Shown one piece after another: positions 3-19,409 of a DNA stretch of 20,000 bases. The notes below the pieces were generated by a model. The model was not told the DNA's origin. It did not search any database and worked only from the letters and a program-made list of their open reading frames with translations. Both the position numbers and the translations under genes were made by a program. This DNA is from an uncultured virus (IMG/VR IMGVR_UViG_3300047567_000019) (lineage: Duplodnaviria > Heunggongvirae > Uroviricota > Caudoviricetes): IMG/VR virus record IMGVR_UViG_3300047567_000019. One strand, written 5' to 3'. Each line of letters begins with the position of its first letter. The first letter of the stretch is position 1.

Positions 3-389
3 GTTTGGCACTATGTGGTTGTAAATCGAAAAGACAACAGCGTAGGACGAGCTACCTATGACAAGTGGTGTCCTGAGCATGGCGGAGCTCCGAGGACGTA
101 TATCGGTGATATGGGCAAACACATCAGCAGGGATATCGATGTTCGGATGCCTGAAGTCAAAATGGATGACGAGATATACGATTTTGGAGATGAAGATGCC
201 GATCAACCAGAGGTCGAGTACGACTTCGGCGATGAGGACAGGAAAACAGACACGCCTCCTCCCACGCAGCAGATAATAAACAATCCGCTGATCATTCAGC
301 AGAAGGGCGACGGGAATGCGGTGATCCCCAATTATGGAACGGTGAATCTTACGCTTGGGAAGCACGGAGGTGGATCGAATGAGCAGTGA
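3..389 (+). CDS. Hypothetical protein, C-terminal part only (5' end outside the window); acidic repeat linker followed by a C-terminal Q/N/G-rich motif
   Basis: Frame is open from base 3 (VWHYVVVNRKDN...), so the GTG at 15 is probably not the real start. Ends TGA 387-389, overlapping the next ATG (379). Contains YDFGDED twice and IIQQKGDGNAVIPNYGTVNLT near the C-terminus. Confidence 0.8.
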   Translation, partial: VWHYVVVNRKDNSVGRATYDKWCPEHGGAPRTYIGDMGKHISRDIDVRMPEVKMDDEIYDFGDEDADQPEVEYDFGDEDRKTDTPPPTQQIINNPLIIQQKGDGNAVIPNYGTVNLTLGKHGGGSNEQ

Positions 390-1019
390 AGTCAAGGTCA
401 TATCTGCGACCGGCCTCCCTGCGACCGGGCAGCCGCAGGTCGTACAGACAGGAAATGATAATGTAACGATACCAAACTACGGCACAGTAAATCTCACCGT
501 CCAGCAGCAATTTGCCACCATGCCTGCTTTCGGAGGCAGCTTCTATGTGCCAGTCAGAGTAAACCGCGAATATTACAACATCTTCGTAATTGGCGGAGAG
601 GAATTTGATAAACCGTATTTTAAGGTTCCGCGTGACCGGGCTCTAACGCATCTGATGTCTAAGGAGACAATGGATCGGTTTGCTGAAATGACGCAGGAGA
701 ACAAGGAAGAAATAAAAACTATGCCCTCTCTTTTCATGGCTGAGAACCGGAACTATGGAAAAGCTGATGATGATCAGATGGTTATATATGGGTTCGTTTC
801 AGACCTCAAAATTATGATAACGATGTGAAAGTGTACTACTGCGGGTACAAGATAGACATTCCGCAGCAGCGGTTAAATGAGTGCCTCGAAGAGCTGGGGC
901 TCGTTGGAGATAATAGATTTAATGAACTGAACAGGACTCACTGGTCAATCAAGCGCTGCGACCTGATACAGGAGCTGCTTGAGGCCGGAGTTCAAATCCC
1001 GGTGTTTAACATGGGGTAA
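379..1019 (+). CDS. Hypothetical protein (~213 aa after joining one frameshift at ~812); N-terminal Q/N/G motif plus a globular domain ending ELNRTHWSIK
   Basis: SD GGAGGTGG at 366-373 precedes ATG 379. ORFs 355..828 and 825..1019 join into one frame if one T is restored in 'attatgataacgatgtg' (reads ...DLKIYDNDVKVYY...). Confidence 0.75.
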
Positions 1020-1047: not shown

Positions 1048-1260
1048 ATGAGTAACGAATTAGAAAATATCACAACAGAAGCAGCACCGGAAAAATGGGT
1101 AAACCTTGAGGATATAGCAGAACACCTCAGCGTTAGTACAGATACCGTCAGGAATTGGATAAAAGACGGCAAGCTACCATTTTATCGAGCCGGGAAACGC
1201 TATAAGTTCAAAATATCCGAAGTCGATGAATGGCTTCGAGATGGGAAAATAACGGATTAG
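1048..1260 (+). CDS. Excisionase-family (HTH_17/MerR-like) DNA-binding protein, 70 aa
   Basis: SD GGAGG at 1036-1040, ATG 1048. Sequence WVNLEDIAEHLSVSTDTVRNWIKDGKLPFYRAGKRYKFKISEVDEWL matches the HTH_17 pattern. Confidence 0.9.
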   Translation: MSNELENITTEAAPEKWVNLEDIAEHLSVSTDTVRNWIKDGKLPFYRAGKRYKFKISEVDEWLRDGKITD

Positions 1261-1299
1261 TATGTCGCACGCGAAAATGTGGCAGAAGGGAGAGTGCCT

Positions 1300-3605
1300 A
1301 TGCAGGACAAAATGCAGTCCCTCATAACAAATATAAAATTAGACGCTGCCACTTTTCATGGTGAAACTGTGGAGCCGACATATATAAATTTTTTCTTTGG
1401 CAAGAATGGCGCAGGGAAAACTACGGTTGCATCTGCATTCAAGCAGCCGGATTGCCTCGAATGGCAAACCGGAATAGTCTCCGCCGATTATACGATTCTC
1501 GTTTATGATCAGGAGTTTATCGACCGCAATCTGGCAGACTACGGTGACGTGAAGGGCGTGTTTACGCTCAGCGAGGAAAACGCCGAGATACGGAAGCAGA
1601 TCGACGATAAGACCGAAGAAAGAAAAACGGTCGTTGAAGACGGTAAGCTGGCCGCTGGAGAGCGTGACAAGAAAACTGGCGAACTCAAACCTTTGCGTGA
1701 TGCATTTGAAAGCACCTGCTGGGATGATACCGAGGACATCAGAAGGAGCTTCGACCAGACGCAGACCGGAAAGAAAAAGAAGCTGCAGTTTACGGACGAG
1801 GTGCTCTCTGGGAAGCACGCGCCGGTCGAGCACAAAAAAGAGGATATTCAAAAGCTCTACGATATCGCCTATGATCCGAATGCGCGGAAGTATCCGTTGT
1901 TCAAAACGACTGCCGAGCTGACTGGTGTGTATGACCTTTCCGGCGAGAGCCATCTCGGCGAGGAGGTGACCAGTCGCAGTGAGACGCAGTTTGCGCAGTT
2001 TATGAAAGCGCTGAATGCGACCGAGTGGGTGAAGCAAGGCCACGCAGATTATGTGGTCGGTCACGATGAAGGAAAGTGTCCCCTTCTGCCAGCGGAAGCT
2101 GCCGGATACCTTTGAAAAGGATATTGCAGAAGCTTTTGACGAAGGTTACCAGAAGGCTCTTGATGCGCTGGAAACCTTCGAGACAGAGTACACAAGGAAG
2201 ATGGCTGCCCTGCTTGAGCTGCTGAAGAATAACCTGAGTGACGTATTTCCGAAGGCGCAGACCGCTGAATACGAAAAGCTGGTGGCGCAGCTGGAAACGG
2301 CCATTACAGAGAACGAGCAGCTGATTGCAAAGAAGAGACAGGCTCCGGGCGAGCCGGTGACACTGAAAGACACAAGCTCTATTCTCGCTGACATTGATAC
2401 GGCTGTGGCGGGTATCAATAAACTGATTCAGGAGAATAACGACATTGTGGCTACCAAGCCGGAAAAGCAGCGCGAATGCTTCAATATGGTCTGGGAAGAA
2501 ATAGCCTTTATCCTGAAGGATAAGGTCGCGGCCTATTTGAAGAGCAAGGGTGATATCGAAGCTGAGGTTAAACGCCTTGACGGACAGGTGAAAGCACTGC
2601 AGGGAAAGTATAAGACGCTGACCTCGGAGATAAACACGCTTAACGCAAGTGTTATCAATACGGCTGCGACGGTAGATAGCATAAATGCTCACCTGAAGGA
2701 TTCCGGATTTGAAGGCTTCCGACTCCGAGAGAAGGAAGGGGTCAAAGGCACCTATGAGGTCATTCGCGAAGATGGCAAGGTTGCCGAGAATCTCAGTGAA
2801 GGAGAACGTAATTTTATCGCTTTCCTGTATTTCTACCATCTGGTGCGTGGTAGCCAGACCGAGACTGACTCCGGCAAGGACAAGATTGTGGTAATCGACG
2901 ATCCGGTTTCCAGCATGGATTCCAGTGCGCTCTTTATCGTCAGTGCGCTGGTGCGTGAGATGCTGGGCGTGTGCAGCAACAATGTCCGGCTCGAAGGCCA
3001 CGAATACAAGGGAAAGTACATCCAGCAGATATTCATCCTGACGCACAATGCGTTCTTCCACAGGGAGATCACATACAATCAGGTAAGCCATTACCGGTAT
3101 GTGTCTTTCTTTAAGGTGAACAAGAAGAACAACGTCTCGACCGTGGAAAAGTGCGTCATTGAGGCCACGAAGATTTCTGAAAAGGATAGGAACTTCAATC
3201 CAGTTCAGAATTCCTACGCGGCTCTGTGGAGAGAATATGAGACGCTCGACGCTCCGATCCCGCTCATGAATGTGATCCGGCGGATTCTGGAGTACTACTT
3301 CCTTCAGCTTTGCGGGTTTGAAAGCAGCCGTCAATGAGTACGATACGGTGCTTGAAGCTGTAAAGAAAGAGATTGATGGAGGAAGGCCAGCCGGCATGGA
3401 GTTCCGGATTACACGAAATACCATCTTGCGCAGGTGCCATGCTCTCCTACATAAACGGCATACGGACTCCTTTAATGACGGACTGTCATTTTGTCGATGA
3501 GAGCATCGATTGCGACCAGTATAGAGATGTGTTTCATTCACGATCTTTGATGGTGATGAATCAGGGACAGCACTTACAAGAGACATGATGGAAGAAGTCG
3601 GATAA
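1300..3605 (+). CDS. RloC-like (AAA_13) Rad50-type ABC ATPase with zinc hook, coiled coils and a C-terminal HEPN-like region; frameshifted as sequenced
   Basis: Walker A GKNGAGKTT; zinc hook CPFC restored by removing one C from the C-run at 2080-2083; signature LSEGE; Walker B/D-loop IVVIDDPVSSMD; H-loop LTHN; C-terminal NVIRRILEYYF. Several more indels at ~3325-3590; plausible stop TAA 3603-3605 (end approximate). Confidence 0.8.
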
Positions 3606-3664
3606 GGTTGTCCACGGCACTTGGCCCACGGAATAGATTACATAAGGAAGGCGAGCACTGCTTA

Positions 3665-6600
3665 ATGAAAATCTTTGACAATGTCACGGATATAGTCCGG
3701 GACGATTTAAAACAGACGGTGAAGCGTGGCAGCAAGGTTTCCATTGCCGCTGCATGCTTCTCCATGTACGCATATAAAGAGTTGAAGACGCAACTGGAGC
3801 AGGTGGACGAGTTCCGGTTCATTTTCACGTCTCCGACATTTATCAAGGAAAAGGCTGAGAAGCAGAAGCGCGAATTCTATATCCCGCGTCTCAGCCGCGA
3901 AAGCAGTCTGTACGGTACGGAATTTGAAATCAAGCTGCGTAATGAGATGACGCAGAAGGCCATCGCAAAGGAATGCGCAGATTGGATCAAGCGCAAGGCG
4001 ACCTTTAAGTCCAATGTTACCGGCGAGAACATGGGCGGCTTTATGACTATTGCTGCTCCATGCTGAGGAAGTAGCATATATGCCGATGAACGGCTTTCAC
4101 GACTGTTGATATCGGCTGCGAACGCGGCAACAACAGCTATAACATGGTCAACCGCATGGAGGCGCCGTTCTCCACGCAGTACATGCAGCTTTTCGAGTCG
4201 CTTTGGAATGACAAGGATAAGATGCAGGACGTAACCGATGTCATCATTTCAAATATCAGTACGGCCTACAATGAGAACTCACCGGAATTCATTTATTTCA
4301 TGACACTCTATAACGTGTTCAGTGAGTTCCTTGATGATATTTCGGAGGACGTTTTGCCGAATGAGGCGACCGGTTTTAAGCAGAGCAAAATCTGGAGTAT
4401 GCTATATGACTTCCAGAGGGACGCGGTACTTGCCATCATCAACAAGCTGGAGAAGTACAACGGCTGCATTCTTGCTGACAGCGTCGGTCTTGGTAAGACC
4501 TTCACTGCGCTGGCTGTTATCAAATATTATGAGAACAGGAATAAAACCGTCCTTGTCCTCTGCCCGAAGAAGCTATCGGAAAACTGGAATACCTATAAGG
4601 ATAACTATGTCAATAATCCGATTGCGTCTGACAGATTAAATTATGATGTTCTTTTCCATACCGACCTTTCTCGTGCTGGTGGCTTTTCCAATGGGCTCGA
4701 TCTCGATCGCCTGAACTGGGGAAACTATGATCTTGTGGTCATAGACGAGTCGCATAACTTCAGGAATGGTGCTGGTACCCATGCCAACACGCAGGAGAAC
4801 CGCTATGTGAAATTGATGGACAAGGTGATCCGTGCTGGCGTCAAGACGAAAGTGTTGATGCTGTCAGCGACACCGGTCAACAACAGATTCACCGACCTGA
4901 AAAATCAGCTGGCCATCGCCTATGAGGGGAACTCGGAATTTATCAATGAGAAGCTCGATACCAAAAAGCCGATTGATGAGATATTCCGTCAGGCGCAGAA
5001 AGCCTTCAATGCATGGAGCAAGCTCGATCCGGAAGCAAGAACGACGGACGCGCTGCTTAGGACACTGGATTTCGATTTCTTTGAAGTCCTCGATAGCGTG
5101 ACGATTGCCCGCTCCAGAAAGCACATAGAGAAATATTACAACACGGAAGAAATCGGCAAGTTCCCGCAACGCCTGAAGCCTATCTCAAGGCGTCCGAGCA
5201 TGACCGATCTTTCGAGCGCCATAAACTATAACCAGATTTACGAGCAGTTGATGCAGCTGACGCTCGTGATCTATACTCCGTCAAACTATATCTTTCCGAG
5301 CAAGATGTCGAAGTACATCGACCTCACGCACAACAAAGGAAATAACCTTACGCAGAAAGGCCGTGAGCAAGGTATCCAGCGTTTGATGAGTATCAATCTC
5401 CTGAAGCGTCTGGAGAGCTCTGTTTATTCCTTCAATTTGACATTGAGCAGAATTCTGGCGCTGATAAAGAGCACCATCTCAGCCATTGACAGCTTTGAGA
5501 AAAATGGAAAAGCTGATCTGGATATGTATGAGGCTTCTGACAGCGATTTTGATATTGATGACGAGAATAACGATTACTTCACCGTCGGCAAAAAGGTAAA
5601 GATTGACCTTGCTGATATGGACTATAAAACATGGCGTGATGAGCTGCAGCGCGATGCGGATACGCTTGAGCTGCTGACGCTTATGATCGCCGATGTTACA
5701 CCGGAACATGATCTGAAGCTGCAGACCTTGTTGCACCTGCTGGATGAGAAAATGAAGCATCCTATCAATGAGGGCAACAAGAAGGTGCTGATCTTCTCCG
5801 CGTTCTCCGATACGGCAGAGTATCTGTACGATCAGGTGTCTGCCTACATGAAATCAAACTATGGTCTGGATACAGCGGTTATTACTGGAAGCATTGACGG
5901 ACGGACTACCATCAAAGGCCTGAAAGCCACGCTCAATAATGTGCTGACCTGCTTCTCGCCTATATCAAAGAGCCGTGATGTTCTGATGCCGGGCAGTACA
6001 AAGGAAATTGATGTCCTGATTGCTACGGACTGTATTTCAGAAGGACAGAACTTGCAGGACTGCGACTATCTGGTGAATTACGATATTCACTGGAATCCTG
6101 TACGCATTATTCAGCGCTTCGGTCGAATTGACCGTATCGGCAGCAGGAACCAGTATATTCAGCTGGTGAACTTCTGGCCGGACATGACGCTGGACGACTA
6201 CATCAACCTTAAATCTCGCGTGGAGACCAGAATGAAAATCTCCGTTATGACCTCGACCGGAGACGATGACCTGATCAATCCAGAGGAAAAAGGCGACCTC
6301 GAATACAGAAAGCAGCAGCTGAAGCGTCTGCAGGAAGAGGTCGTGGATATTGAAGATATGTCCACGGGTATTTCCATCATGGATCTGGGACTAAATGAGT
6401 TCCGGCTTGACCTGCTGGAATATATAAAGACGCATGACCTTAGTACTAAGCCGAAGGGACTGCACGCGGTAGTTCCGGCCACGGAGGAGAATCCGGAGGG
6501 CGTGATCTTTGTCCTACGGAACATCAATAACAGTATCAACATTGATAACCAGAATCGCATTCACCCGTTCTACATGGTGTATATCGGTGTAGACGGAGAA

Positions 6601-6894
6601 ATTGTCTGCGACTACTTGAATCCGAAGAAGCTGCTGGACACCGTCCGGCTGTTGTGCCGAGGAAAGTCCGAACCGGTACTGACGCTGTGTGAAAAATTCA
6701 ATAAGGAAACAGATGATGGAAGAAACATGGAGGAAGTGTCGCAGCTTCTCTCCGATGCGATCAATTCCATTATTGACGTAAAAGAAGAAAGCGATATTGA
6801 TAGCCTGTTCTCCGCTGGAGGGACTTCTGCCCTGATGTCAGAGATCAACGGGCTGGATGACTTTGAGCTTATTTGCTTCTTAGTAGTGAAATGA
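3665..6894 (+). CDS. SNF2-family helicase with an N-terminal PLD-like domain; frameshifted at ~4060-4100
   Basis: SD AAGGAAGG before ATG 3665 (MKIFDNVTDIVRDDLK...SIAAACFSMYAY). ORF 4144..6894 has LADSVGLGKT (motif I), VIDESHNFRN (DExH), SATP (III), ATDCISEGQNLQ (V) and QRFGRIDRIG (VI). Confidence 0.85.
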
Positions 6895-6907
6895 GGAGGT
6901 GCATCCG

Positions 6908-7576
6908 GTGATTGGATTACCGAAGAGCACGGAGTTTAACCGGCGCATCCCGAAGCAGAAGTTCTATGAGAACATTTCTGTATCGCCGACGTTAAAGCGA
7001 GTGTTCATAGATCAGATCAAGGTGATCTACTGGCGCAACAAAGTGGCCGCGACAACTATGAATCTTGCCGCCGGAGACACCGTAACGGAGCTGGAGGTCT
7101 TTGAAATAAAACTGAACGGGCAGCAGCTTGACGAGTCCGTCCTCCGGCAGATAGATAAAGAGATACCGTACCACATTCTGTTCCTGCTGGAATACGATGG
7201 CAAGTATCAGGCGTGGACAGCCTACAAAGAGGCTGCGGCTTCCGGATCAAATGCATTTAAGGTGGGTACGTACTACCACACGGATTGGCTCCCGGAAGAT
7301 GAGCTGCCTCTGAAGGTAGAAGGCCTGAGTGTCGATAAGGTTTATGAGAATTTTGTGCGGCAGATCGCGGGCGATGCGCTCCGCGCCGAGGACGGAAAGA
7401 CTGAATCGCTGAAGGAATCCGTAGAGCGCGATACCCGCCGTCAGGAGCTGGAAAAGCAGATCGCAGCACTTCAAACGAAAGTCCGCAAGGAAAAGCAGCT
7501 GAACAAGCAGGTGCAGCTGAACGCGGAGCTAAAGAAACTGAAAAAAGAACTGGAGGTGCTGGGTAATGGATCATGA
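6908..7576 (+). CDS. DUF4391 family protein
   Basis: SD GAGGAGGT then GTG 6908. N-terminus (M)IGLPKSTEFNRRIPKQKFY and C-terminal coiled coil KVRKEKQLNKQVQLNAELKKLK are typical of DUF4391, as is the position between an SNF2 helicase and Type III mod. Confidence 0.8.
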   Translation: MIGLPKSTEFNRRIPKQKFYENISVSPTLKRVFIDQIKVIYWRNKVAATTMNLAAGDTVTELEVFEIKLNGQQLDESVLRQIDKEIPYHILFLLEYDGKYQAWTAYKEAAASGSNAFKVGTYYHTDWLPEDELPLKVEGLSVDKVYENFVRQIAGDALRAEDGKTESLKESVERDTRRQELEKQIAALQTKVRKEKQLNKQVQLNAELKKLKKELEVLGNGS

Positions 7577-8645
7577 TCAAGAAGTTCGAAAAATCCTTGC
7601 AGGAAGAACTTCTTCTGGCACGATCAGGAGCAGAGAAAGTAATACTGTTGAGTTCAAACAGTCTTTCAATAAAGGAAATACTGCAGCTTATGCTAAAACG
7701 ATGGCTGCTTATGCAAATAACAGCGGAGGATATATTATCTTCGGCATCACAGACTCGCCAAGAAAAATCGTAGGCCTTAAAAATGATAACTTTGAAAACT
7801 TGAAGCAGGAAGTATTTACTGACGCCATAAACGCCCTTTTCTCACCTGCTATAGAATGGGAAATGGGGGCAATTGTTCTGGAAGAAGAAAAAGAGGATGA
7901 TAACGGTGTCATTATTACAGAGCGAAAGAAAATCGGCTGGATATATACAATCGAGTCTGAAATAAAGCCCGTGATCGCTCAAAAGGATAACAGCAGCGAA
8001 AGTATAACAGCTGGAGATGTATTTTATCGTTATCGGGCGAGAAACGGAAAAATAAAGCCTGCCGAGATGGAGCGGATTATATCGGATCGCATAAATCGAG
8101 AACGAGAAAATTTGCTTCGCGTCCTTGAGGTGATACGCAAGAGCGGGACTGCCAATTTGGGTATTGTAAATTATAGCGACGGAAAGTTTTCAACTCCGTA
8201 TGGTGTGGATGTTGCCTTTGATAGAAAACTGGTCACTCAGGTTTTGAAGAAAGCAAAGTTCATAAAGGAAGGGAGCTTCAACGAGACGGATGGTATTCCG
8301 GTTATAAAGGTCACGGGTAATATTGATCTGGCAGAGGAAGTTCCTGTTCCTGAAGGGAATCCAGACGATACTCATCCGTATATTCAGAAGCAGATGGCTG
8401 AAAAGCTGGGAATCAGCACGCAAGATTTATACGCACTCATTTGGTACTTTAAGATGAAGGAATCCAAGAAATATCATCTGGAAATAACCGTCTCCAAGAG
8501 TGGAAAGACACACAAGTTTTCAAACTTTGCGCTCGAATTCCTACAAGAGAAACTAAACGAGCTGAAGGGCAATGATGCAGAGTTTGAAAAAATTAGAATG
8601 GCTTATAAGAACAGAAACAAGCAGGAGGAAAAAACTAATGGATAA
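7566..8645 (+). CDS. Schlafen/AlbA_2 domain protein with an uncharacterised C-terminal domain
   Basis: RESNTVEFKQSF...YAKTMAAYANNSGGYIIFGITD is the AlbA_2 signature. Intact 359-aa ORF, visibly more AT-rich than its upstream neighbours, overlapping both flanking genes. Confidence 0.85.
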   Translation: MDHDQEVRKILAGRTSSGTIRSRESNTVEFKQSFNKGNTAAYAKTMAAYANNSGGYIIFGITDSPRKIVGLKNDNFENLKQEVFTDAINALFSPAIEWEMGAIVLEEEKEDDNGVIITERKKIGWIYTIESEIKPVIAQKDNSSESITAGDVFYRYRARNGKIKPAEMERIISDRINRERENLLRVLEVIRKSGTANLGIVNYSDGKFSTPYGVDVAFDRKLVTQVLKKAKFIKEGSFNETDGIPVIKVTGNIDLAEEVPVPEGNPDDTHPYIQKQMAEKLGISTQDLYALIWYFKMKESKKYHLEITVSKSGKTHKFSNFALEFLQEKLNELKGNDAEFEKIRMAYKNRNKQEEKTNG

Positions 8646-10614
8646 GATGAGAATGGAGTCAGTTGACATGACTGAGAAGAACATCGACAGGGTTGCAGAC
8701 CTGTTCCCAAACTGCATCACTGAGGCCTGTGGACGAAGAGCGCAGCACTCCTGACCATAAGGTCTACAAGAAAGTTGTGAATTTCGACCTGCTCCGCCAG
8801 ATGCTTTCCGGAGATGTTCTGGAAGGCGATGAGGCTTATGAATTTACATGGGTTGGTAAGAAAGCTGCTATTGTAGAGGCAAATAAGCCTGTCCGCAAAA
8901 CATTGCGTCCATGCCCGGAAGAGAGTGTTGAGTGGGATACTACGGAGAATCTGTATATCGAGGGCGACAATATTGATGTATTAAAACTCTCTGCAGGAAA
9001 GCTATCTTGGTAAGGTAAAGATGATATATATCGATCCACCTTATAATACCGGCTCGGATAGTTTTGTGTATCCTGATGATTACGGAATGTCACAGGATGA
9101 ATATGAGAGTGAAAGCGGTGCTGTTGACGATGACGGTAATACTGTATTTAAGGAAAACAGCAAAACAAATCCTCGTTACCATTCCAAATGGTGCTCCATG
9201 ATATATGAGAGGTTGATGCTTGCACGAAATCTTTTAAGCGACGAGGGAGCCATTTTCATACATATAGACGAACATGAAGTCTATACGTTGGAGATGATGT
9301 GCAATGAAATCTTTGGCGTGCAGAATGAACTTGGCACCATTGTATGGGACAAAAGGAATCCGAAAGGTGTTGTGGCTGGTGTTGCTTATCAACATGAATC
9401 CATTTTAGTGTTTTGCAAAAATATTTCTGTTTTTGCTGGGGTGCCTTTTACCAAAAAGAAGGAACATGCAGATGCAATGATGTCTAAAGCTGCTTCTTTG
9501 ATTAGAAAGTATGGTGGTGTTACAGAGCAGGTTAGAACTGAGTTTAAGGACTGGATAAAGGCAAATAAAGCGGACTTATCAGGTGGAGAAAGTGCGTACA
9601 GCCTTATTGATGATGCAGGAAATATATATCAACCTGTTTCGATGGCTGCACCGGATAAGCCGGAAACCCGTTCGCACCGGCCTCTGATACATCCTAAAAC
9701 AGGAAAACCTTGTCCTGTTCCTGCGAAGGGGTGGCGATTTACCGATCCTACAATGGATGATTTGCTCAAAAGGGATAAGATTGAGTTTGGAGCTGATGAG
9801 TCCACCCAGCCGAGACAGAAATATTTTCTTAAAGAGAATATGTATGAGGCTGTTTCCTCGCTCCTTTACTATGGAGGATCTGACGATGCCTTAGGCTTGC
9901 CGTTTGAGAACCCTAAGCCGGTATATGTGGCGAAAAAGTTGATAAGCTCACTTGCAAAGCAAGATGGGGATATCGTTATGGACTTCTTCTCCGGTTCAGC
10001 TACTACTGCCCATGCGGTTATGGAATTGAACGCAGAGGATGGAGTTAAGCGTACCTTTATAATGGTTCAATATCCTGAACTATTAAAGAGAAATCGCCAG
10101 CGTATAAGGAGGGGTATAGGACTATTCCTGAGATTGGGAAGAAACGTATAAAACTCGCAATTGAGAAAATTAAAGAGGAATCGAACCCAAATACTGTAGA
10201 CCTTGGCTTTAGGGTATTTAAGACAGATGAAAGTAATATGAATGACAGTTTATTATTCAGCGGGAGAATATAATCAAGGGATGCTTTCGCTGCTGGAGTC
10301 TAATGTCAAAGTCGGATCGTTCAATGACCTCGATCTGCTCTTTGGCTGCCTTGCTTGAGTGGGGACTTCCGCTCTCGATGCCGTACACGTCAGAGCAGAT
10401 TGAAGGTTGCACAGTACACACATACAACGATGGCGATCTGATTGCTTGCTTTGATGAGAATATTCCGGATGCAGTTATTAAAGGAAATCGCGAAGAGCGT
10501 CAGCCGCTTCGTGCTGTATTCCGCGACAGCAGCTTTAATGGAAGCCCGGCAAAAATCAACGTGGGAGAGATTTTCAAAATGCTGGCACCAGACACAAGAG
10601 TAAAAGTAATTTAA
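8638..10614 (+). CDS. mod: Type III restriction-modification methyltransferase (Mod subunit); multiple frameshifts as sequenced
   Basis: SD AGGAGG, ATG 8638 (MDKMRMESVD...LFPNCITE). Fragments contain YEFTWVGKK, NLYIEGDN, motif IV IYIDPPYNTG, motif I DFFSGSATT (beta-class order) and the C-terminal RAVFRDSSF...INVGEIFK...KVI. Indels near 8727, 8990, 10085 and 10245-10500. Confidence 0.9.
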
Positions 10615-10629
10615 GGAGGTGGCATCCGT

Positions 10630-13600
10630 ATGAGGATACAATACAAACATCAAAAATTCCAAGCTGATGCTGCCAAGGCGGTCGTGGATGTTTTTGCAGG
10701 CCAGCCTTATCTGACGCCTACCTACATGATGGATAGAGGAACCGGTACATTTCAGATTGGAATGAATGAGGAACAGAGACTACACTGGTTGGAGTAATCA
10801 GAAGATTGTGCCGGAGCTTTCCGACCATCTGATTCTGGAGCATATACAGAAAATTCAGCGTACAAATCAGATCCAGCCTTCTTCAAAGCTGGAAGGCCGC
10901 AGCGACGGTTTCAATCTCACCATCGAGATGGAGACAGGTGTCGGCAAGACCTATACCTATATCAAGACGATGTATGAGCTGAACCGCGCCTATGGCTGGA
11001 GCAAGTTCATCATCGTGGTGCCGAGCATCGCTATCCGCGAGGGTGTATATAAGTCCTTCCAGATGACGCAGGAGCACTTTGCGGAGGAGTACGGAAAGAA
11101 AATACGCTTTTTCATCTATAACTCTGCGCAGCTCACGGAGATTGACCGCTTTGCCTCCGACAGCTCCATCAATGTCATGATCATCAATTCGCAGGCGTTC
11201 AATGCCAAGGGCAAGGATGCAAGGCGTATTTATATGAAGCTGGACGAGTTCCGCAGCCGTCGCCCGATTGACATCATTGCAAAGACGAATCCGATTCTGA
11301 TCATCGACGAGCCGCAGTCTGTGGAAGGTAAGCAGACAAAGGAGCGCCTGAAAGAGTTCCAGCCGCTGCTCACGCTCCGCTATTCTGCTACGCATAAGTC
11401 GGACAGCATTTACAACATGATTTATCGTCTGGACGCGATGGAGGCATACAACAAGCGTCTGGTTAAGAAGATCGCCGTTAAGGGTATCACCGAGACCGGC
11501 AGCACGGCTACGGACAGCTATCTCTATCTGGAAGGCTTGAATCTTTCCAAGGGTGATCCTACTGCTACGCTGCAGTTTGAGGTCAAGATGGCCAGCGGCA
11601 CTCCAAAGAAAAAGAGCCGCGTCGTGAAAATCGGAGATAATCTCTACGACTATTCCGGCGGGCTGGAAGAATACAAAAATGGCTTTGTGGTCAAGCAGAT
11701 TGATGGCCGCGACGACTCCGTGGAGTTCCTGAACGGCATCAAGATTTACGCCGGTGACGTGATGGGTGCGGTCGATGAAGACCAGCTGCGTCGCATTCAG
11801 ATCAGAGAGACGATCCTGTCACATATCCAGAGAGAACGTCAGCTCTTCTATAAGGGCATAAAAGTGTTGTCTCTGTTCTTTATCGATGAGGTTGCAAACT
11901 ATAGAGAGTATGATGCCGCAGGCCAGCCGGTGAACGGAAAGTACGCCAGAATGTTTGAAGAGGAGTACGAGGACATCATCAGCAATATGCAGCTTAGTAT
12001 AGGCGAGGACGAATACATCAAATACCTGCAGAGCATCAAGGCTTCAAAGACTCACGCGGGATATTTCTCCGTGGACGGAAAAGGCAAGATGATCAACTCC
12101 AAGGTCGGTCGTAAAGAAACTACCTCGGACGACGTGAGCGCCTACGAGCTGATCATGAAGAACAAGGAGCTGCTTCTTGATCGTGATCCGAAGAAGTCTC
12201 CGGTGCGCTTCATCTTTTCACACTCCGCTCTGCGTGAAGGATGGGACAATCCTAATGTGTTCCAGATCTGCACGCTGAAGCAGTCCAGCAGCGATGTTCG
12301 TAAGCGTCAGGAAGTAGGCCGTGGCCTGCGCCTTTGCGTCAATCAGGATGGTGAGCGTATGGATACCAATGCGCTCGGAAACGACGTTCATAACGTGAAT
12401 GTCCTGACGGTTATCGCCAGCGAGAGCTACGATTCCTTTGCCAAAGGCCTGCAAACCGAAATGGCTGATGCCGTTGCTGACAGACCGCGTGCTGTTACAG
12501 TTGATCTTTTCGTTGGCAAGGTCATCAAGGACGACAAGGGTAATGAGCAGGTTATCGATCAGGATACTGCTTCCGCAATACACTACGACATGATCGTTAA
12601 CGGTTATATCGACCGTAAGGGCGTCCTGACAGATAAGTATTACGAGGATAAGGCAAACGGAGAAATCAAGGTCGCAGAGGAAGTGGCTGATTCCGCAGCC
12701 TCTGTTATTGAGATTGTTGACTCCATTTACGATGCCCGCAGCATGCAGCCTGAGAATGCCCGCAGCAATAACGTCGAGCTTCAGGTCGATGAAGAGAAAC
12801 TGGCTATGCCGGAATTCAAAGCGCTGTGGTCAAAGATCAATGCTAAGTCCGTATATGTTGTTGATTTTGATACCGACGAGCTGATCAGGAAGTCTATCGC
12901 TTCCCTTGACTCCAAGCTGCGCGTTTCAAAGATTTATTTCCGGGTAGAATCCGGTGCTATGGATACCATCAAGTCCAAGGAGGAGCTGGTCTCCGGAGCT
13001 TCCTTCGTAAAGGAAGAGTCTGCCAGCTACGGTGTGACCATCACGGCAAACTCGAATGTAAAATATGACCTCATCGGAAAGCTGGTGGATGAGACCGGCC
13101 TTACCCGTAAAGCGGTTATTGCAATCCTTCAGGGTATCCAGCCGTTCGTGTTCGACCAGTTTAAGGATAATCCGGAGGAATTTATCGTCAAGGCCGCTGC
13201 GCTGATCAATGACGAGAAGGCCACGGCAATCATTGAGCACATCACCTACGACGTGCTGGATGAGCATTACGGCATGGATGTTTTCACCGATCCTACCATC
13301 AAGGGCAAGCTGGGCGTTAATGCGATGAAGGCAAAGAAGCACTTGTACGATCACATCGTTTATGATTCCTCGAACGAGCGCGACTTCGCCACAGACCTTG
13401 ATACGAATACCGACGTCGCGGTTTACGTGAAGCTGCCAGACGGTTTCTATATCTCCACTCCGGTCGGGCATTACAATCCGGACTGGGCGATTGCTTTCTA
13501 TGAGGGGAAGGTAAAACACATATACTTCGTGGCAGAGACGAAGGGCTCCATGAGCTCGATGCAGCTGCGTCTGATCGAGGAGTCTAAGATTCACTGCGCA

Positions 13601-13690
13601 AGAGAACACTTTAAGGCCATCTCCAATGGGAATGTGGTATACGACGTGGTTGATAGCTACAAGTCCCTGCTGGAGAAGGTAATGAAATAA
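10630..13690 (+). CDS. res: Type III restriction endonuclease (Res subunit); one frameshift near 10765
   Basis: SD AAGGAGGT, ATG 10630 (MRIQYKHQKFQADAAKAVVDVFAGQ). Motifs EMETGVGKT, IIDEPQ, RYSATH, FIFSHSALREGWDNPNVFQIC, QEVGRGLR and the nuclease motif YNPDWAI...VAETKG. Confidence 0.95.
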
Positions 13691-16170: not shown

Positions 16171-16260
16171 GCCGCTAAATTCTTGTTTGAAACGGATTAT
16201 CAATGAAAATCACCTCTGAGAAGAGGATAATATAAGAAATAAAGTAAAGGAGTGAGACTC

Positions 16261-19200
16261 ATGCCAGGATTCTATACCGAAGCGGATTATGAAAACTCTA
16301 TTATAGAATTATTTGAAAACCTGGGTTATCGTCATGTTTATGCACCTGATTTGGAACGTGACTTCTATAGCCCTTTATATGAAGAAGAACTTGAGTCCGC
16401 GTTACACAGGCTGAATCCAGAAATGCCGGAAGACGCAATTGCGGACGCATTATACAAGCTGAAAAATTTTGAAAACGCGGAGCTTGTACAGAAGAATGCG
16501 TTATTCATGGATTATCTGCAGCACGGAATTGAAGTGCGTTATTTTGTGAAAGGTGAAGAACGTTCCGGCCTGGTTTATCTTGCTGATTACAAGAATCCTG
16601 AGAAAAACTCCTTTGTTGTAGCAAACCAGTGGACTTTTATTGAAAATAGTAATAAACGTCCAGATGTTATCTTGTTCTTAAATGGTTTACCTGTTGTTTT
16701 AATAGAACTTAAATCTCCTTCACGTGAAGAAACAGATGCGTCAGAGGGATACTTGCAGATTAGAAACTATATGCAGGAAATTCCATCGATGTTTATCTAT
16801 AACTGTATTTGTGTAATCAGCGACCATTTGACGAGCAAAGCCGGAACGATTACTTCCGGTGAAGACCGTTTTATGGAATGGAAAACGAAAGATGGCGACT
16901 ACGAGAATACGCAGTACGCTCAGTTTGATACATTTTTTGAGGGGATGTTCATGAAGGAACGTCTGCTCGATATCATTAAGAATTTCATCTGCTTCTCCAA
17001 TGAAGGAATCAAGCAGTTTAAGATATTGGCAGGATACCATCAGTATTTTGCTGTTAGAAAGGCAATTGAATCTACAAAGAAAGCAACAGTCACTGACGGA
17101 AAGGGCGGTGTTTTCTGGCATACACAGGGCAGCGGGAAATCGCTGTCTATGGTCTTTTATGCGCATCTTCTTCAGGAGGCACTAGATAGCCCGACTATCG
17201 TTGTTATTACAGACCGTAACGATCTGGACGATCAGCTCTACGGCCAGTTTGCAAAATGTAAGGATTTTCTGCGTCAAGACCCGGTTCATGCTTCAAGTCG
17301 CGAAAATCTGAAGAACCTGCTTGATGGCAGACAGGCAAACGGCATCATCTTCACAACGATGCAGAAGTTTGAAGAATCTGCTGAGCCACTTTCTGAGCGT
17401 CGGAATATTGTTGTTATGGCTGATGAAGCTCACCGAAGCCAGTATGGCCTGAAGGAAAAGGTTGATGCCAAGACCGGTGAAATCAAGGTGGGAACTGCCC
17501 GTGTTATTCGTGACAGCCTTCCGAATGCTACATATATAGGTTTCACCGGCACGCCGATTGCGGCCAAGGATAGAAATACCCGCGAAGTATTCGGTGATTA
17601 TATTGATATTTATGATATGACACAGGCTGTTGAAGATGGCGCTACAAGGCCGGTTTATTATGAAAGCCGTGTCATTAAGCTGAAGTTTGACGAAGCAACG
17701 CTTCATCTTATTGATCAGGAGTACGACATTATGGCAAATAATGCTGATCCTGAAGTTGTTGAGAAGAGCAAGAAAGAGCTTGGTCAGATGGAGGCAGTTC
17801 TTGGAAACGACGCTACGATTGATTCACTGGTAAGTGACATTATCGACCACTACGAAAATTACCGTGAGGATCTGCTGACCGGTAAGGCGATGATCGTTGC
17901 CTATTCCCGTGCCATTGCCATGAAGATTTATAAGCGCATCCTCGAGTTGCGTCCGGGCTGGACTGAGAAGGTTAAGGTTGTTATGACCGAGAGCAACAAA
18001 GATCCAGAGGAATGGCGTTCAGTTATTGGAAATAAACGCCGCAGAGACGAGCTTGCTAAGGAATTCAAGGACAATGATAGTCCAATGAAAATTGCAATCG
18101 TTGTGGATATGTGGCTGACTGGATTTGATGTGCCTTCCCTTGCCACAATGTACGTGTACAAGCCCATGCAGGGGTATAACTTGATGCAGGCAATTGCACG
18201 TGTTAACCGTGTTTTCCGAGATAAGGAAGGCGGGTTGATTGTCGACTACGTTGGTATCGCATCCGCTTTGAAGCAGGCTATGAATGATTACACAGTTCGT
18301 GATAAAAAGAACTACGGTGATACCGATATTGCTAAGGTTGCTTATCCGAAGTTCCTCGAGAAGCTGGATGTCTGCCGTGATATTTTCCACGGTTACGATT
18401 ATTCAAAGTTCGCAACTGGAACCGATCTGGAAAGATCAAAGGCTATTACCGGCGCCGTGAACTTTATTATGGCGCTTGATAAGGAAGATAAGAAGATTGA
18501 CTTCATAAAGGAATCATTGCTTCTGAAGCAGGCACTGTCGCTTTGCTCTTCTCTTGTAGAGCGTGATCTGCGAGTGGAAGCAGCATTCTTTGAATCTGTA
18601 CGAGTTCTTGTTACTCGCCTAATGAATCAGGGTGACGGTCACAAGGTCAGCCTGAAGGAGATGAATGACCGAATAAATGAACTATTGAAATCAAGTATAA
18701 AGAGTGACGGAGTAATCAATCTCTTTTCGGATGTGAAGGAAGAGTTTTCGCTGTTTGATCCGAAGTTCCTTGAGGAAATTTCCAATATGAAGGAAAAAAA
18801 TCTTGCTGTTGAGCTTTTGAAAAAACTGATTGCTGAACAGGTTAAGGTTTTCCGTAGGACAAATGTTGTGAAATCTGAGAAGTTCAGCGAGCGGATGCAG
18901 AAGGTTATGAATTCCTATCTTAATGGCATGTTATCAAATGAGCAGGTTATAGAAGAACTTTTAAATATGGCAAAACAGATTGCAGCGGCAAATAAGCAGG
19001 CGATGCTCTTGGGCTTACGCCTGATGAATTGGCATTTTATGATGCATTAACAAAACCACAGGCAATAAAAGATTTTTATCAGAACAACGAACTTGTTGCT
19101 ATCACAAAAGAATTGACGGAAACATTGCGAAAAAACCGAACAATAGATTGGCAGAAGCGGGACTCAGCAAGAGCTAAAATGCGTATGATGATAAAACGCC

Positions 19201-19409
19201 TTTTGAAGAAACATAAATATCCGCCGGAAGGTATGGAAGACGCTGTTCAAACTGTTATGACACAGTGTGAGTTATGGACAGATAATAATGAAATGGATAC
19301 AGATATAATATCGTATTCAGAAAGAAAAAATCAGTATAAAGATAATACAGATCAGATGGTAGCGGAGAATTCTGCTCCATATGGTGATGAGGAGGAGGAT
19401 AAGTCATAA
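16261..19409 (+). CDS. hsdR: Type I R-M restriction subunit; one frameshift at ~18995
   Basis: SD AAAGGAG, ATG 16261. RPDVILFLNGLPVVLIELK nuclease motif, WHTQGSGKS, DEAH, GFTGTP, MWLTGFD, QAIARVNR. Restoring one A in 'aataagcagg' joins to ...GDALGLTPDELAFYDAL... (ORF 19029..19409). Confidence 0.93.

Follow-up and report, generated by a model that had tools for sequence, protein, structure and literature searches.

Introduction

The described systems closest to the gene pair analysed here are bacterial amyloid signalling pairs, in which two adjacent genes encode the same short motif, one copy at the C-terminus of an effector and the other at the N-terminus of a sensor. In the Bell/NOD-like receptor (NLR) pairs BASS1-10 this motif spans about 20-25 residues, is rich in N, Q, G, V and I and poor in K, L and P, and resembles its partner copy more than it does the motifs of other pairs; all-in-one equivalents are a further described feature (Dyrka et al., bioRxiv 10.1101/2020.01.06.895854; here and below, statements on published systems draw on parts of the cited texts). 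The same survey found the pairs mainly in multicellular Actinobacteria and Cyanobacteria, with NLR architectures rare or absent in Firmicutes. We analysed two overlapping genes, gene 1 and gene 2, at the start of a 20,000-nucleotide stretch of DNA (the window) from an uncultured virus of the Caudoviricetes (IMG/VR record IMGVR_UViG_3300047567_000019). Gene 1 ends and gene 2 begins with a shared 22-residue, N/Q/G-rich motif, and we read the two genes, with some confidence, as an effector and its non-NLR sensor.

The pair resembles BASS1-10 in the adjacency of its genes, in the length, placement and composition of the motif, in a within-pair likeness that exceeds the between-pair likeness, and in the existence of all-in-one fusions. 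A NACHT partner, as in BASS1-10, is present only in the sister loci L095, L100 and L101 (loci and proteins carry our numbers, L and P). In contrast, the window and most other loci have a sensor of 213 amino acids (aa) with a predicted PUA-like fold and neither nucleoside triphosphatase (NTPase) nor repeats; the effector domain, of about 230 aa, does not appear to be a Bell domain and matches neither a Pfam family nor a known fold; and the hosts are unicellular Clostridia and their phages. The motif comparison is with the published description of the BASS motifs and not with BASS profiles.

The closest known design is Bab/Agp (BASS11) of E. coli, for which fibrils, prion-like foci and abortive infection have been shown by experiment and whose Bab protein, of 109 aa, is Bell-like (Ibarlosa et al., bioRxiv 10.1101/2024.11.07.622273). 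Like the window pair as we read it, Bab/Agp consists of two genes that form an anti-phage module within the defence island of a prophage, with a C-terminal motif on the effector, an N-terminal motif on a non-NLR sensor and about 20 residues of motif as the sole link between the two proteins. It differs in that both globular domains of the window pair appear unrelated to those of Bab/Agp and match no Pfam family, and in that our pair is known from sequence alone. A preliminary description of the window, made from its letters, had proposed a possibly undescribed kind of signalling pair; this part of the proposal falls, as amyloid signalling with a non-NLR sensor is already known in defence from Bab/Agp (2024).

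In the HET-S/NWD2 (HRAM) and RHIM/PP systems of fungi and animals, too, the effector motif is C-terminal and the sensor motif N-terminal, with about 21-22 residues per layer. In HET-S a helical domain of about 230 aa is joined through a flexible part to the motif, a layout that gene 1 resembles. On the other hand, gene 1 tails carry one motif copy instead of two pseudo-repeats, have no Pfam match, and fold searches with gene 1 did not find the HeLo fold.

The likeness to the RHIM core that was claimed in the preliminary description does not hold either. The RHIM/PP/BASS3 signature has a central G-phi-Q-phi-G (bioRxiv 10.1101/2020.01.06.895854), whereas the motif family described here has a single invariant Gly and no conserved leading Gly; the positions around the Q are polar or variable, and the residue after it is T, K, N, S, Y or L. 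Neither gene matches any Pfam family at E <= 0.1-1, and hence none for RHIM or HET-s in so far as Pfam-A has such models.

Results

Two adjacent genes share a terminal motif

Gene 1 enters the window from upstream, so that only its last 128 codons are present (positions 3-389, plus strand). Its product ends in ...NNPLIIQQKGDGNAVIPNYGTVNLTLGKHGGGSNEQ*, also written ...TPPPTQQIINNPLIIQQKGDGNAVIPNYGTVNLTLGKHGGGSNEQ when translated in the frame 3-389. Gene 2 follows on the same strand at 379-1019; its product starts at the ATG at 379 with MSSEVKVISATGLPATGQPQVVQTGNDNVTIPNYGTVNLTVQQQ. The first motif copy, LIIQQKGDGNAVIPNYGTVNLT, occupies 22 aligned columns at 288-353, in which IIQQKGDGNAVIPNYGTVNLT is encoded at 291-353. 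The second, PQVVQTGNDNVTIPNYGTVNLT, lies at 433-498, where 439-498 encode the stretch VVQTG...NLT. Over an 18-residue core, QKGDGNAVIPNYGTVNLT and QTGNDNVTIPNYGTVNLT share 13 of 18 residues, and the two copies are about 80 nucleotides (nt) apart. In the two stretches and the count of identical residues, the sequence and its translations agree with the preliminary description.

The same applies to the DNA beneath the peptides. We recounted the third-base differences, which affect 9 of the 10 codons of the identical 10-residue core, and the 11-nt overlap between the stop codon of gene 1 (387-389) and the start codon of gene 2. Among the 13 identical residues three use the same codon and ten differ synonymously, and therefore no recent gene conversion has taken place in the window; gene conversion can be ruled out as the source of the likeness. 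Local alignment of tail and head gives a score of 72, with z = 11.1 against 300 shuffles of the head, calculated on the representative locus L001, whose motifs are identical to those of the window.

Both copies are placed in disordered segments: in AlphaFold-type models of the two proteins the motif regions have a predicted local distance difference test score (pLDDT) below 50 and adjoin confidently predicted domains. After the first copy, positions 354-389 encode LGKHGGGSNEQ, and the tails of relatives end in GG(K/R)x(D/N)E. The GGAGG ribosome-binding site of gene 2 lies inside the last codons of gene 1 (366-370), and this signal probably accounts for the conserved G-G-x tail. The codons after the motif overlap both the ribosome-binding site and the start codon of gene 2, and the DNA signal may be what keeps these residues conserved.

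The motifs of one locus co-vary

A check proposed with the first reading, that the two motifs be more alike within a locus than between loci, was run and passed. For 37 representatives of 114 loci the mean own-locus score of tail against head is 52.2, compared with 32.3 for other loci, an own-locus mean reached by 0 of 100000 permutations; for 18 clade representatives the values are 56.6 and 37.3, again reached by 0 of 100000. Own-locus scores exceed z = 3 against shuffled heads in 35 of the 37 representatives, and the two failures include one head with a mis-set start. In the 22-column alignment, same-column identity is 0.41 within loci and 0.25 between loci, and a single Gly never varies.

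The score matrix falls into blocks, in that tails of one motif type match heads of the same type only. At least four types co-vary in this way, exemplified by ...IPNYGT..., ...SGGNNxF..H.D..., ...NQxGANxxQIG... and ...TQxGxxNTQI.YV.NY..... Some features are specific to one side, such as FNQYG in tails and FTQTG in heads. An old duplication followed by independent drift would be expected to give equal own-locus and other-locus scores. Co-variation and codon differences together indicate that the two ends have been kept alike, position by position, by selection on the peptide; the earlier claim to this effect is sustained. Column-by-column identity is what in-register homotypic stacking would be expected to select for.

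The median aligned core has 20 residues, with 22 well-occupied columns. Compared with the globular parts of the same proteins it is enriched in N (3.8x), Q (2.3x), T, V and G and depleted in K (0.14x), L (0.39x), R and E; P, at 0.96x, is not depleted. The preliminary description had cautioned that a proline in the motif might favour a non-amyloid contact between strands. This caveat is weakened: the middle Pro (IPNYG) is limited to one motif type, although the commonest, and in the other types that column holds A, G, N, D or Q. A complex prediction for two gene 1 tails and two gene 2 heads, made without controls, scored 0.00 against a mark of 0.32 and counts neither way.

The gene 1 domain is also wired to NACHT proteins

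The strongest new evidence comes from the pairing of this putative effector domain with NACHT proteins. In the viral loci L095, L100 and L101, relatives of gene 1 end in a different tail motif (...VNNYGTVQNQKFISIETMNGDINL) and are followed, in place of gene 2, by a NACHT+SNaCT14 protein of about 770-950 aa. We ran Pfam on the partners in L095 and L101 and assigned that in L100 by its identical head sequence. The NACHT matches reach 45.7 bits (L095) and 30.0 bits (L101), above the Pfam gathering cut-off of 26.7, and the SNaCT14 matches 248 and 75 bits. The N-terminal part of these partners reads ...VDNHANVGNQTIINIQNMTGNI, which aligns with the tail of the adjacent gene 1 at a score of 46-52 (z 5.5-6.7; reached by 0 of 1000 shuffles). 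None of the 37 other heads or tails gives as good a match, the best of them scoring 36-42.

A further locus, L075, encodes a direct fusion of the gene 1 domain to a NACHT module (41.2 bits). More generally, among 25 longer proteins with the gene 1 domain at their start, 20 contain NACHT, 14 of these 20 with SNaCT14 as well. The gene 1 domain thereby takes the N-terminal position, which in bacterial NACHT proteins is the effector end, the C-terminus being the sensor end (Kibby et al. 2022, bioRxiv 10.1101/2022.07.19.500537). The bNACHT family has an anti-phage role (same source). The window pair differs from it in having no NACHT, and the effector types that the available text of that study names, its supplementary tables aside, do not include the gene 1 N-domain.

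Gene 1 and gene 2 themselves also occur as single proteins. Both domains are joined in L045 and L046, where the linker motif is absent or present as one degenerate copy. Among the best 150 of the 807 matches to a gene 2 profile, 20 are at least 300 aa long, and 14 of these 20 start with the gene 1 domain; no linker motif is recognisable in the fusions L045/P0075, P0253 and P0351. Of further long forms, one carries TIR_2 behind the gene 2 body, one a protein kinase ahead of it, and two are tandem bodies. Matching terminal motifs, one effector with different sensors, and all-in-one fusions are together the design of NLR-associated amyloid signalling in fungi and bacteria (bioRxiv 10.1101/2020.01.06.895854). 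The amyloid-signalling pair design that was first proposed for the window is partly supported, with sister loci that show the canonical NACHT version with a shared motif or as a fusion; the RHIM likeness and the novelty of the kind are the parts that were lost.

Several single proteins are recorded here as side observations. The gene 2 bodies with TIR_2, kinase or a tandem copy are those of P0348, P0332, P0311 and P0330, and the tandem copies lie behind N/G-rich N-termini. P0202, one of the 25 longer proteins and found on one contig, combines the gene 1 domain with a Pfam EVE domain and a McrB-like AAA_5 ATPase, and is either a real fusion or a gene-calling artefact. P0269 (755 aa) consists of the gene 1 domain, an extra region, the motif, a gene 2 body, a second motif (FSQTGDRNTLIAHADSV) and DUF6650; it may be the read-through of a third gene whose product begins with the motif, hinting at more motif-bearing partners. 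For the fusion P0075 a single weak PADLOC match to HamA/DUF1837 (E 9e-4, 16 bits) was not relied on.

Gene 2 has a predicted PUA-like body

The AlphaFold-type model of gene 2 shows residues 1-54 as disordered (pLDDT < 50) and residues 55-213 as an alpha/beta domain. This globular body, presumed to be the sensor domain, is encoded at about 541-1019 (plus strand). The top rows of a Foldseek search with the body are YTH domains and the N-domain of Thermococcus gammatolerans McrB (E 1.3e-3 to 1e-2), and VcaM4I appears at rank 46. The scores are middling, and we regard a PUA-like fold (ASCH/EVE/YTH-like) as probable and not as certain.

No sequence family supports or replaces this assignment: gene 2 matches no Pfam, NCBIfam or PADLOC family, nothing usable in PHROGs, and specifically no Pfam EVE, ASCH or YTH model, and its profile has no match below E 0.33 among sequences of the Protein Data Bank (PDB). 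It has neither an NTPase family match nor repeats, so the NLR feature is absent from the sensor in the window. The earlier statement that gene 2 is not an NLR is upheld by this and by the PUA-like model. Defence proteins of the PUA superfamily that read modified bases (EVE, ASCH, YTH, McrB N-domain, VcaM4I; partial texts of PMC7641849, PMC7897488 and PMC6765204) resemble the gene 2 body in its predicted fold and in its presumed use as a sensor module joined to varied effectors (the gene 1 domain, TIR_2 or a kinase), and P0202 is a relative of gene 1 with an EVE fusion. They differ in that gene 2 lacks a sequence-level match to EVE, ASCH or YTH, and in that the known readers are fused directly to nucleases and not linked through a shared terminal motif. 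EVE, ASCH and YTH are not mentioned in the available part of the Bab/Agp preprint (bioRxiv 10.1101/2024.11.07.622273).

The family is sizeable, with 71 proteins in a first search and 807 representatives at 50% identity in an exhaustive profile search. As a side observation, relatives keep a prefix ahead of the motif, M-S/D/E-D/N-K/E-L/V-Q/K, after which P or V-I-S often comes next.

Gene 1 has a predicted helical domain and a disordered tail

Full-length relatives of gene 1 have about 290-350 aa. Their helical N-domain accounts for about 230 aa and leads, through a disordered linker rich in acidic residues, to the C-terminal motif. As a full-length stand-in for the partial gene of the window we used P0074 from L001, whose AlphaFold model was built from an alignment of 44 sequences. 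Residues 1 to about 230 are mostly helical and mostly confident, and residues 231-305 have pLDDT < 50. The linker, also below 50, contains 16 D+E and 1 K+R within 37 residues.

Conservation is highest in two hydrophobic helices, LCGGTFFVLVL (9-19) and LPAFLLGVWHYVVV (about 170-183). The first is almost invariant and has a Kyte-Doolittle value of 2.4 over its 11 residues. Buried, near-invariant hydrophobic helices suggest that the N-domain could be a latent membrane-active module with a HeLo/Bell-like logic, to which we give about one chance in three.

Neither the partial nor the full-length protein finds anything usable in Pfam, PHROGs, NCBIfam or PADLOC. Pfam searches with all 44 alignment members reveal no recurrent family (any one match occurs in at most 2 of 44), the profile has no significant match to PDB sequences, and fold searches with the domain, ESM Atlas included, return no usable match, the HeLo, Bell and Hell folds not being among the matches listed. 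At 90% identity the family comprises 756 clusters.

Two features of the region ahead of the motif vary between clades. The acidic low-complexity linker of the window (153-251, plus strand) contains YDFGDED twice; this repeat is kept by the near relatives L001, L002, L004 and L008, and the acidic linkers of other clades are without it. YDFGDED may be a short linear motif in its own right. In P0122, P0126, P0139, P0148, P0156 and P0167 (424-429 aa) an extra domain of about 130 aa, with no assigned family, replaces the acidic linker, and the C-terminal motif is kept. The motif therefore behaves as a movable terminal module.

The pair is conserved at a fixed site in a phage lineage

A search seeded with gene 2 gave 47 genome loci. 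Among the 42 in which the start of gene 2 could be set, a gene 1 relative with a motif tail lies directly upstream in 41, and in the remaining one, L038, the tail gene is shortened; left out of the 42 were L020, L037 and L047, which are cut or broken, and the fusions L045 and L046. In the reverse direction, a search seeded with gene 1 found relatives on 141 viral contigs, and gene 2 is directly downstream in 72 of the 80 kept. The other eight are four contig ends, three NACHT partners and one NACHT fusion.

Overall the pair occurs in more than 100 loci from independent assemblies, mostly of gut, rumen and digester Clostridia and of Heliusvirales-type prophages. The hosts of the gene 2-seeded loci include Lachnospiraceae, Oscillospiraceae, Christensenella, Desulfosporosinus and Dethiobacter, and some loci are from the Actinobacteria Corynebacterium, Mobiluncus and Tessaracoccus.

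The position of the pair is constant. Upstream, on the opposite strand, is a replication module with a sigma70_r4-like small protein, DUF2800/PD-(D/E)XK, an Enc34-type single-stranded DNA-binding protein and DNA polymerase A, an arrangement that holds for the scanned loci extending that far. Downstream is an HTH_17 protein and then variable cargo: AAA_13, DUF6079, SNF2+DUF4391+methylase, or type I or type II restriction-modification. The complete genome of a Ca. Heliusvirales phage (PV036449.1) has the same synteny, with both genes of the pair annotated as hypothetical; the available part of the published description of this order does not mention the pair. Likewise, the accessible main texts on amyloid signalling in antiphage defence, on BASS11 and on Heliusvirales, supplements being outside this scope, contain no description of it. 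The pair is located at the head of the defence-cargo region of a Heliusvirales-type temperate phage, and the defence-island setting proposed for it at the outset is borne out by this cargo.

Discussion

A putative effector/sensor module

Based on these results, we consider it fairly probable that gene 1 and gene 2 form a prophage-borne effector/sensor module with a non-NLR sensor, coupled by a putative homotypic cross-beta templating between their motifs. The basis of this reading is the shared motif, its positional co-variation, its disordered setting and its amyloid-motif-like composition, to which are added the exchange of the sensor for NACHT proteins, the all-in-one fusions, and the setting in a phage among defence genes. 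Its putative parts are the amyloid fold, the ligand, the activity of the effector and the direction in which the signal runs.

The proposed sequence of events would be as follows. The PUA-like domain of gene 2 would bind an infection cue, at a guess modified or otherwise foreign nucleic acid. Several sensors would crowd on the nucleic-acid polymer and so gather their N-terminal motifs, which might then stack in register as a cross-beta (beta-arch) fold. This stack would recruit and template the matching motif of gene 1, and the clustering of gene 1 would turn on its N-domain and harm the infected cell, possibly by freeing the two conserved hydrophobic helices onto the membrane. The ZBP1-RHIM-RIPK3 pathway is a counterpart of the logic of such a nucleic-acid-triggered route. 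In its boldest form, in which gene 2 is a prion-like trigger on phage nucleic acid that passes its amyloid fold to an executioner of new fold, gene 1, with no NTPase involved, the proposal is tentative and in our judgement rather unlikely to be correct in full.

Several points weigh against the templating module. The cross-beta fold of the motif is hypothetical. Gene 2 contains neither an NTPase nor a known oligomerising module, which makes the nucleation step a guess. The commonest motif type has its Pro in mid-motif, and P is not depleted, unlike what is reported for BASS motifs. No Pfam model matches either protein. A near-universal pair at one fixed site in a phage lineage would also fit a role in the biology of the phage itself, and overlapping, translationally coupled genes equally fit a stoichiometric complex.

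Alternative explanations

The last of these points leads to the main rival, a constitutive heterodimer in which the motifs form a finite beta-sheet "velcro" that joins the halves of a split protein, without templating or a switch. Such a complex is unlikely on balance. In its favour are the gene 1-gene 2 fusions, several of which dispense with the linker motif and which dominate the long matches to the gene 2 profile; the 11-nt overlap, with the ribosome-binding site inside gene 1, would favour equal output of both proteins. However, the partners co-vary toward identity at the same positions, which a complementary interface would not need, and in composition the motif matches amyloid signalling motifs. 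The tail-and-head design with NACHT partners is moreover a described signalling architecture, one in which all-in-one forms are expected too.

It is improbable that the pair instead serves the phage itself by reading DNA modification to time induction, replication or lysis, a role under which the motif coupling may still operate. The fixed site beside the divergent replication module, found also in the complete phage genome, and the retention of the pair in 72 of the 80 viral loci of gene 1 are consistent with such a role. Set against them are contexts of immune type, namely the gene 1 domain at the effector end of NACHT+SNaCT14 proteins and the gene 2 body joined to TIR_2, and the genes downstream, which are variable defence cargo and not phage core.

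Slightly less probable still is a shared ligand, meaning that both motifs fit one third site, whether a groove in a globular domain (with autoinhibition or competition), a host protease or a chaperone. Motifs in disordered terminal segments would suit this, and so would the side-specific features that tails and heads have kept. But three-way co-evolution would be demanded across at least four very different motif types, the matching copy on the NACHT partner would be left unexplained, and a 22-residue N/Q/G-rich core is, in our judgement, long for a linear binding motif.

Chance likeness, recent duplication, gene conversion or an assembly artefact, which the short distance between the copies and the assembly-type frame breaks of the window might suggest, is effectively excluded by the shuffling result, the ten synonymous codon differences, the many independently assembled loci with pair and motifs, and independent public contigs that agree with the window apart from one T.

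What the templating module would add

To return to the effector/sensor module with cross-beta templating, what is new relative to the published systems is an effector with neither family nor fold match, a small PUA-like sensor without NTPase or repeats, and a motif family with at least four co-varying types that fails the RHIM/BASS3 signature. The hosts (Clostridia, some Actinobacteria and Heliusvirales-type phages) and the link of the effector to NACHT+SNaCT14 proteins are also new. If the reading holds, it would provide a second, independent case of a non-NLR sensor, and amyloid-type immune signalling would reach unicellular Firmicutes and their phages, where the founding survey found pairs rare. 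The carrier of the module would be a temperate phage lineage that is among the commonest in Clostridia of gut and digester. NACHT+SNaCT14 proteins may have the gene 1 domain as their effector; in the boldest form of the proposal, this executioner would supply the effector, so far without a name, for a clade of these bacterial immune proteins.

If the PUA-like domain reads modified bases, modification sensing would be tied to cell-death signalling without a nuclease. Two sizeable uncharacterised families would gain testable roles, and the natural co-varying motif types offer a ready-made specificity system.

Neighbouring genes and state of the window sequence

Gene 2 was first described as a protein of about 213 aa. 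This length is that of the intact form P0003, which has 100% identity across the matched part, whereas the copy in the window is not one open frame: it runs in frame 1 up to a stop at 828 and then in frame 3 up to 1019. The break consists of one T absent from a T-run at 812-813, relative to the 97%-identical locus L001. Contigs from three public runs of three studies, which may include the source of the window, contain the extra T and are otherwise identical over this stretch. The most likely cause of the missing T is either an error of assembly or a private variant.

Downstream of the pair, the small HTH_17 protein (excisionase/MerR-like; Pfam E 3.4e-15), which comes after the pair in many loci and may or may not be part of the module, is encoded at 1048-1260 (plus strand). 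Its gene has the same position in L002, in L075 (there read from the translation) and in the phage record PV036449.1. It is followed at 1279-3337 (plus strand) by an AAA_13 ATPase identified with Pfam, split into 1279-2115 and 2051-3337, which we treat as separate cargo. AAA_13 comes after the pair in 6 of 11 scanned loci (L002, L017, L030, L041, L042 and, in two pieces, L038) and is absent downstream of it in three (L022, L040 and L044).

The cargo of the window comprises AAA_13, SNF2, DUF4391, Schlafen/AlbA_2, a type III-like methylase with Res, type I M/S/R subunits and GmrSD. The part from 3608 to 13690 contains the SNF2-type helicase, DUF4391, Schlafen/AlbA_2, the N6/N4 methylase and the Res-type helicase-endonuclease. 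The trio of SNF2, DUF4391 and methylase also follows the pair in L022, and SNF2 alone does so in L017.

At least three further genes are split in the window, at 1279-3337, 8693-10151 and 16252-19409. Besides the two pieces of AAA_13, a separate open reading frame of 106 aa precedes the N6_N4 methylase, and HsdR is broken inside T1RH-like_C at profile position 240 of 244. Multiple split genes suggest indel errors of the assembly and not decay.

Contigs of the RNA run X15 cover only 1-146, 964-1114 and 1139-1289, at depth 2; the motifs are uncovered, and these contigs say nothing on expression. DNA nearly identical to positions 1-1300 (98% of sampled words) is present in 14 public runs from 9 studies, some of which may be the source of the window. 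The habitats of these runs are bioreactor, landfill, wastewater, anaerobic digester, soil and food-production metagenomes, and the element or its host is widespread in such habitats.

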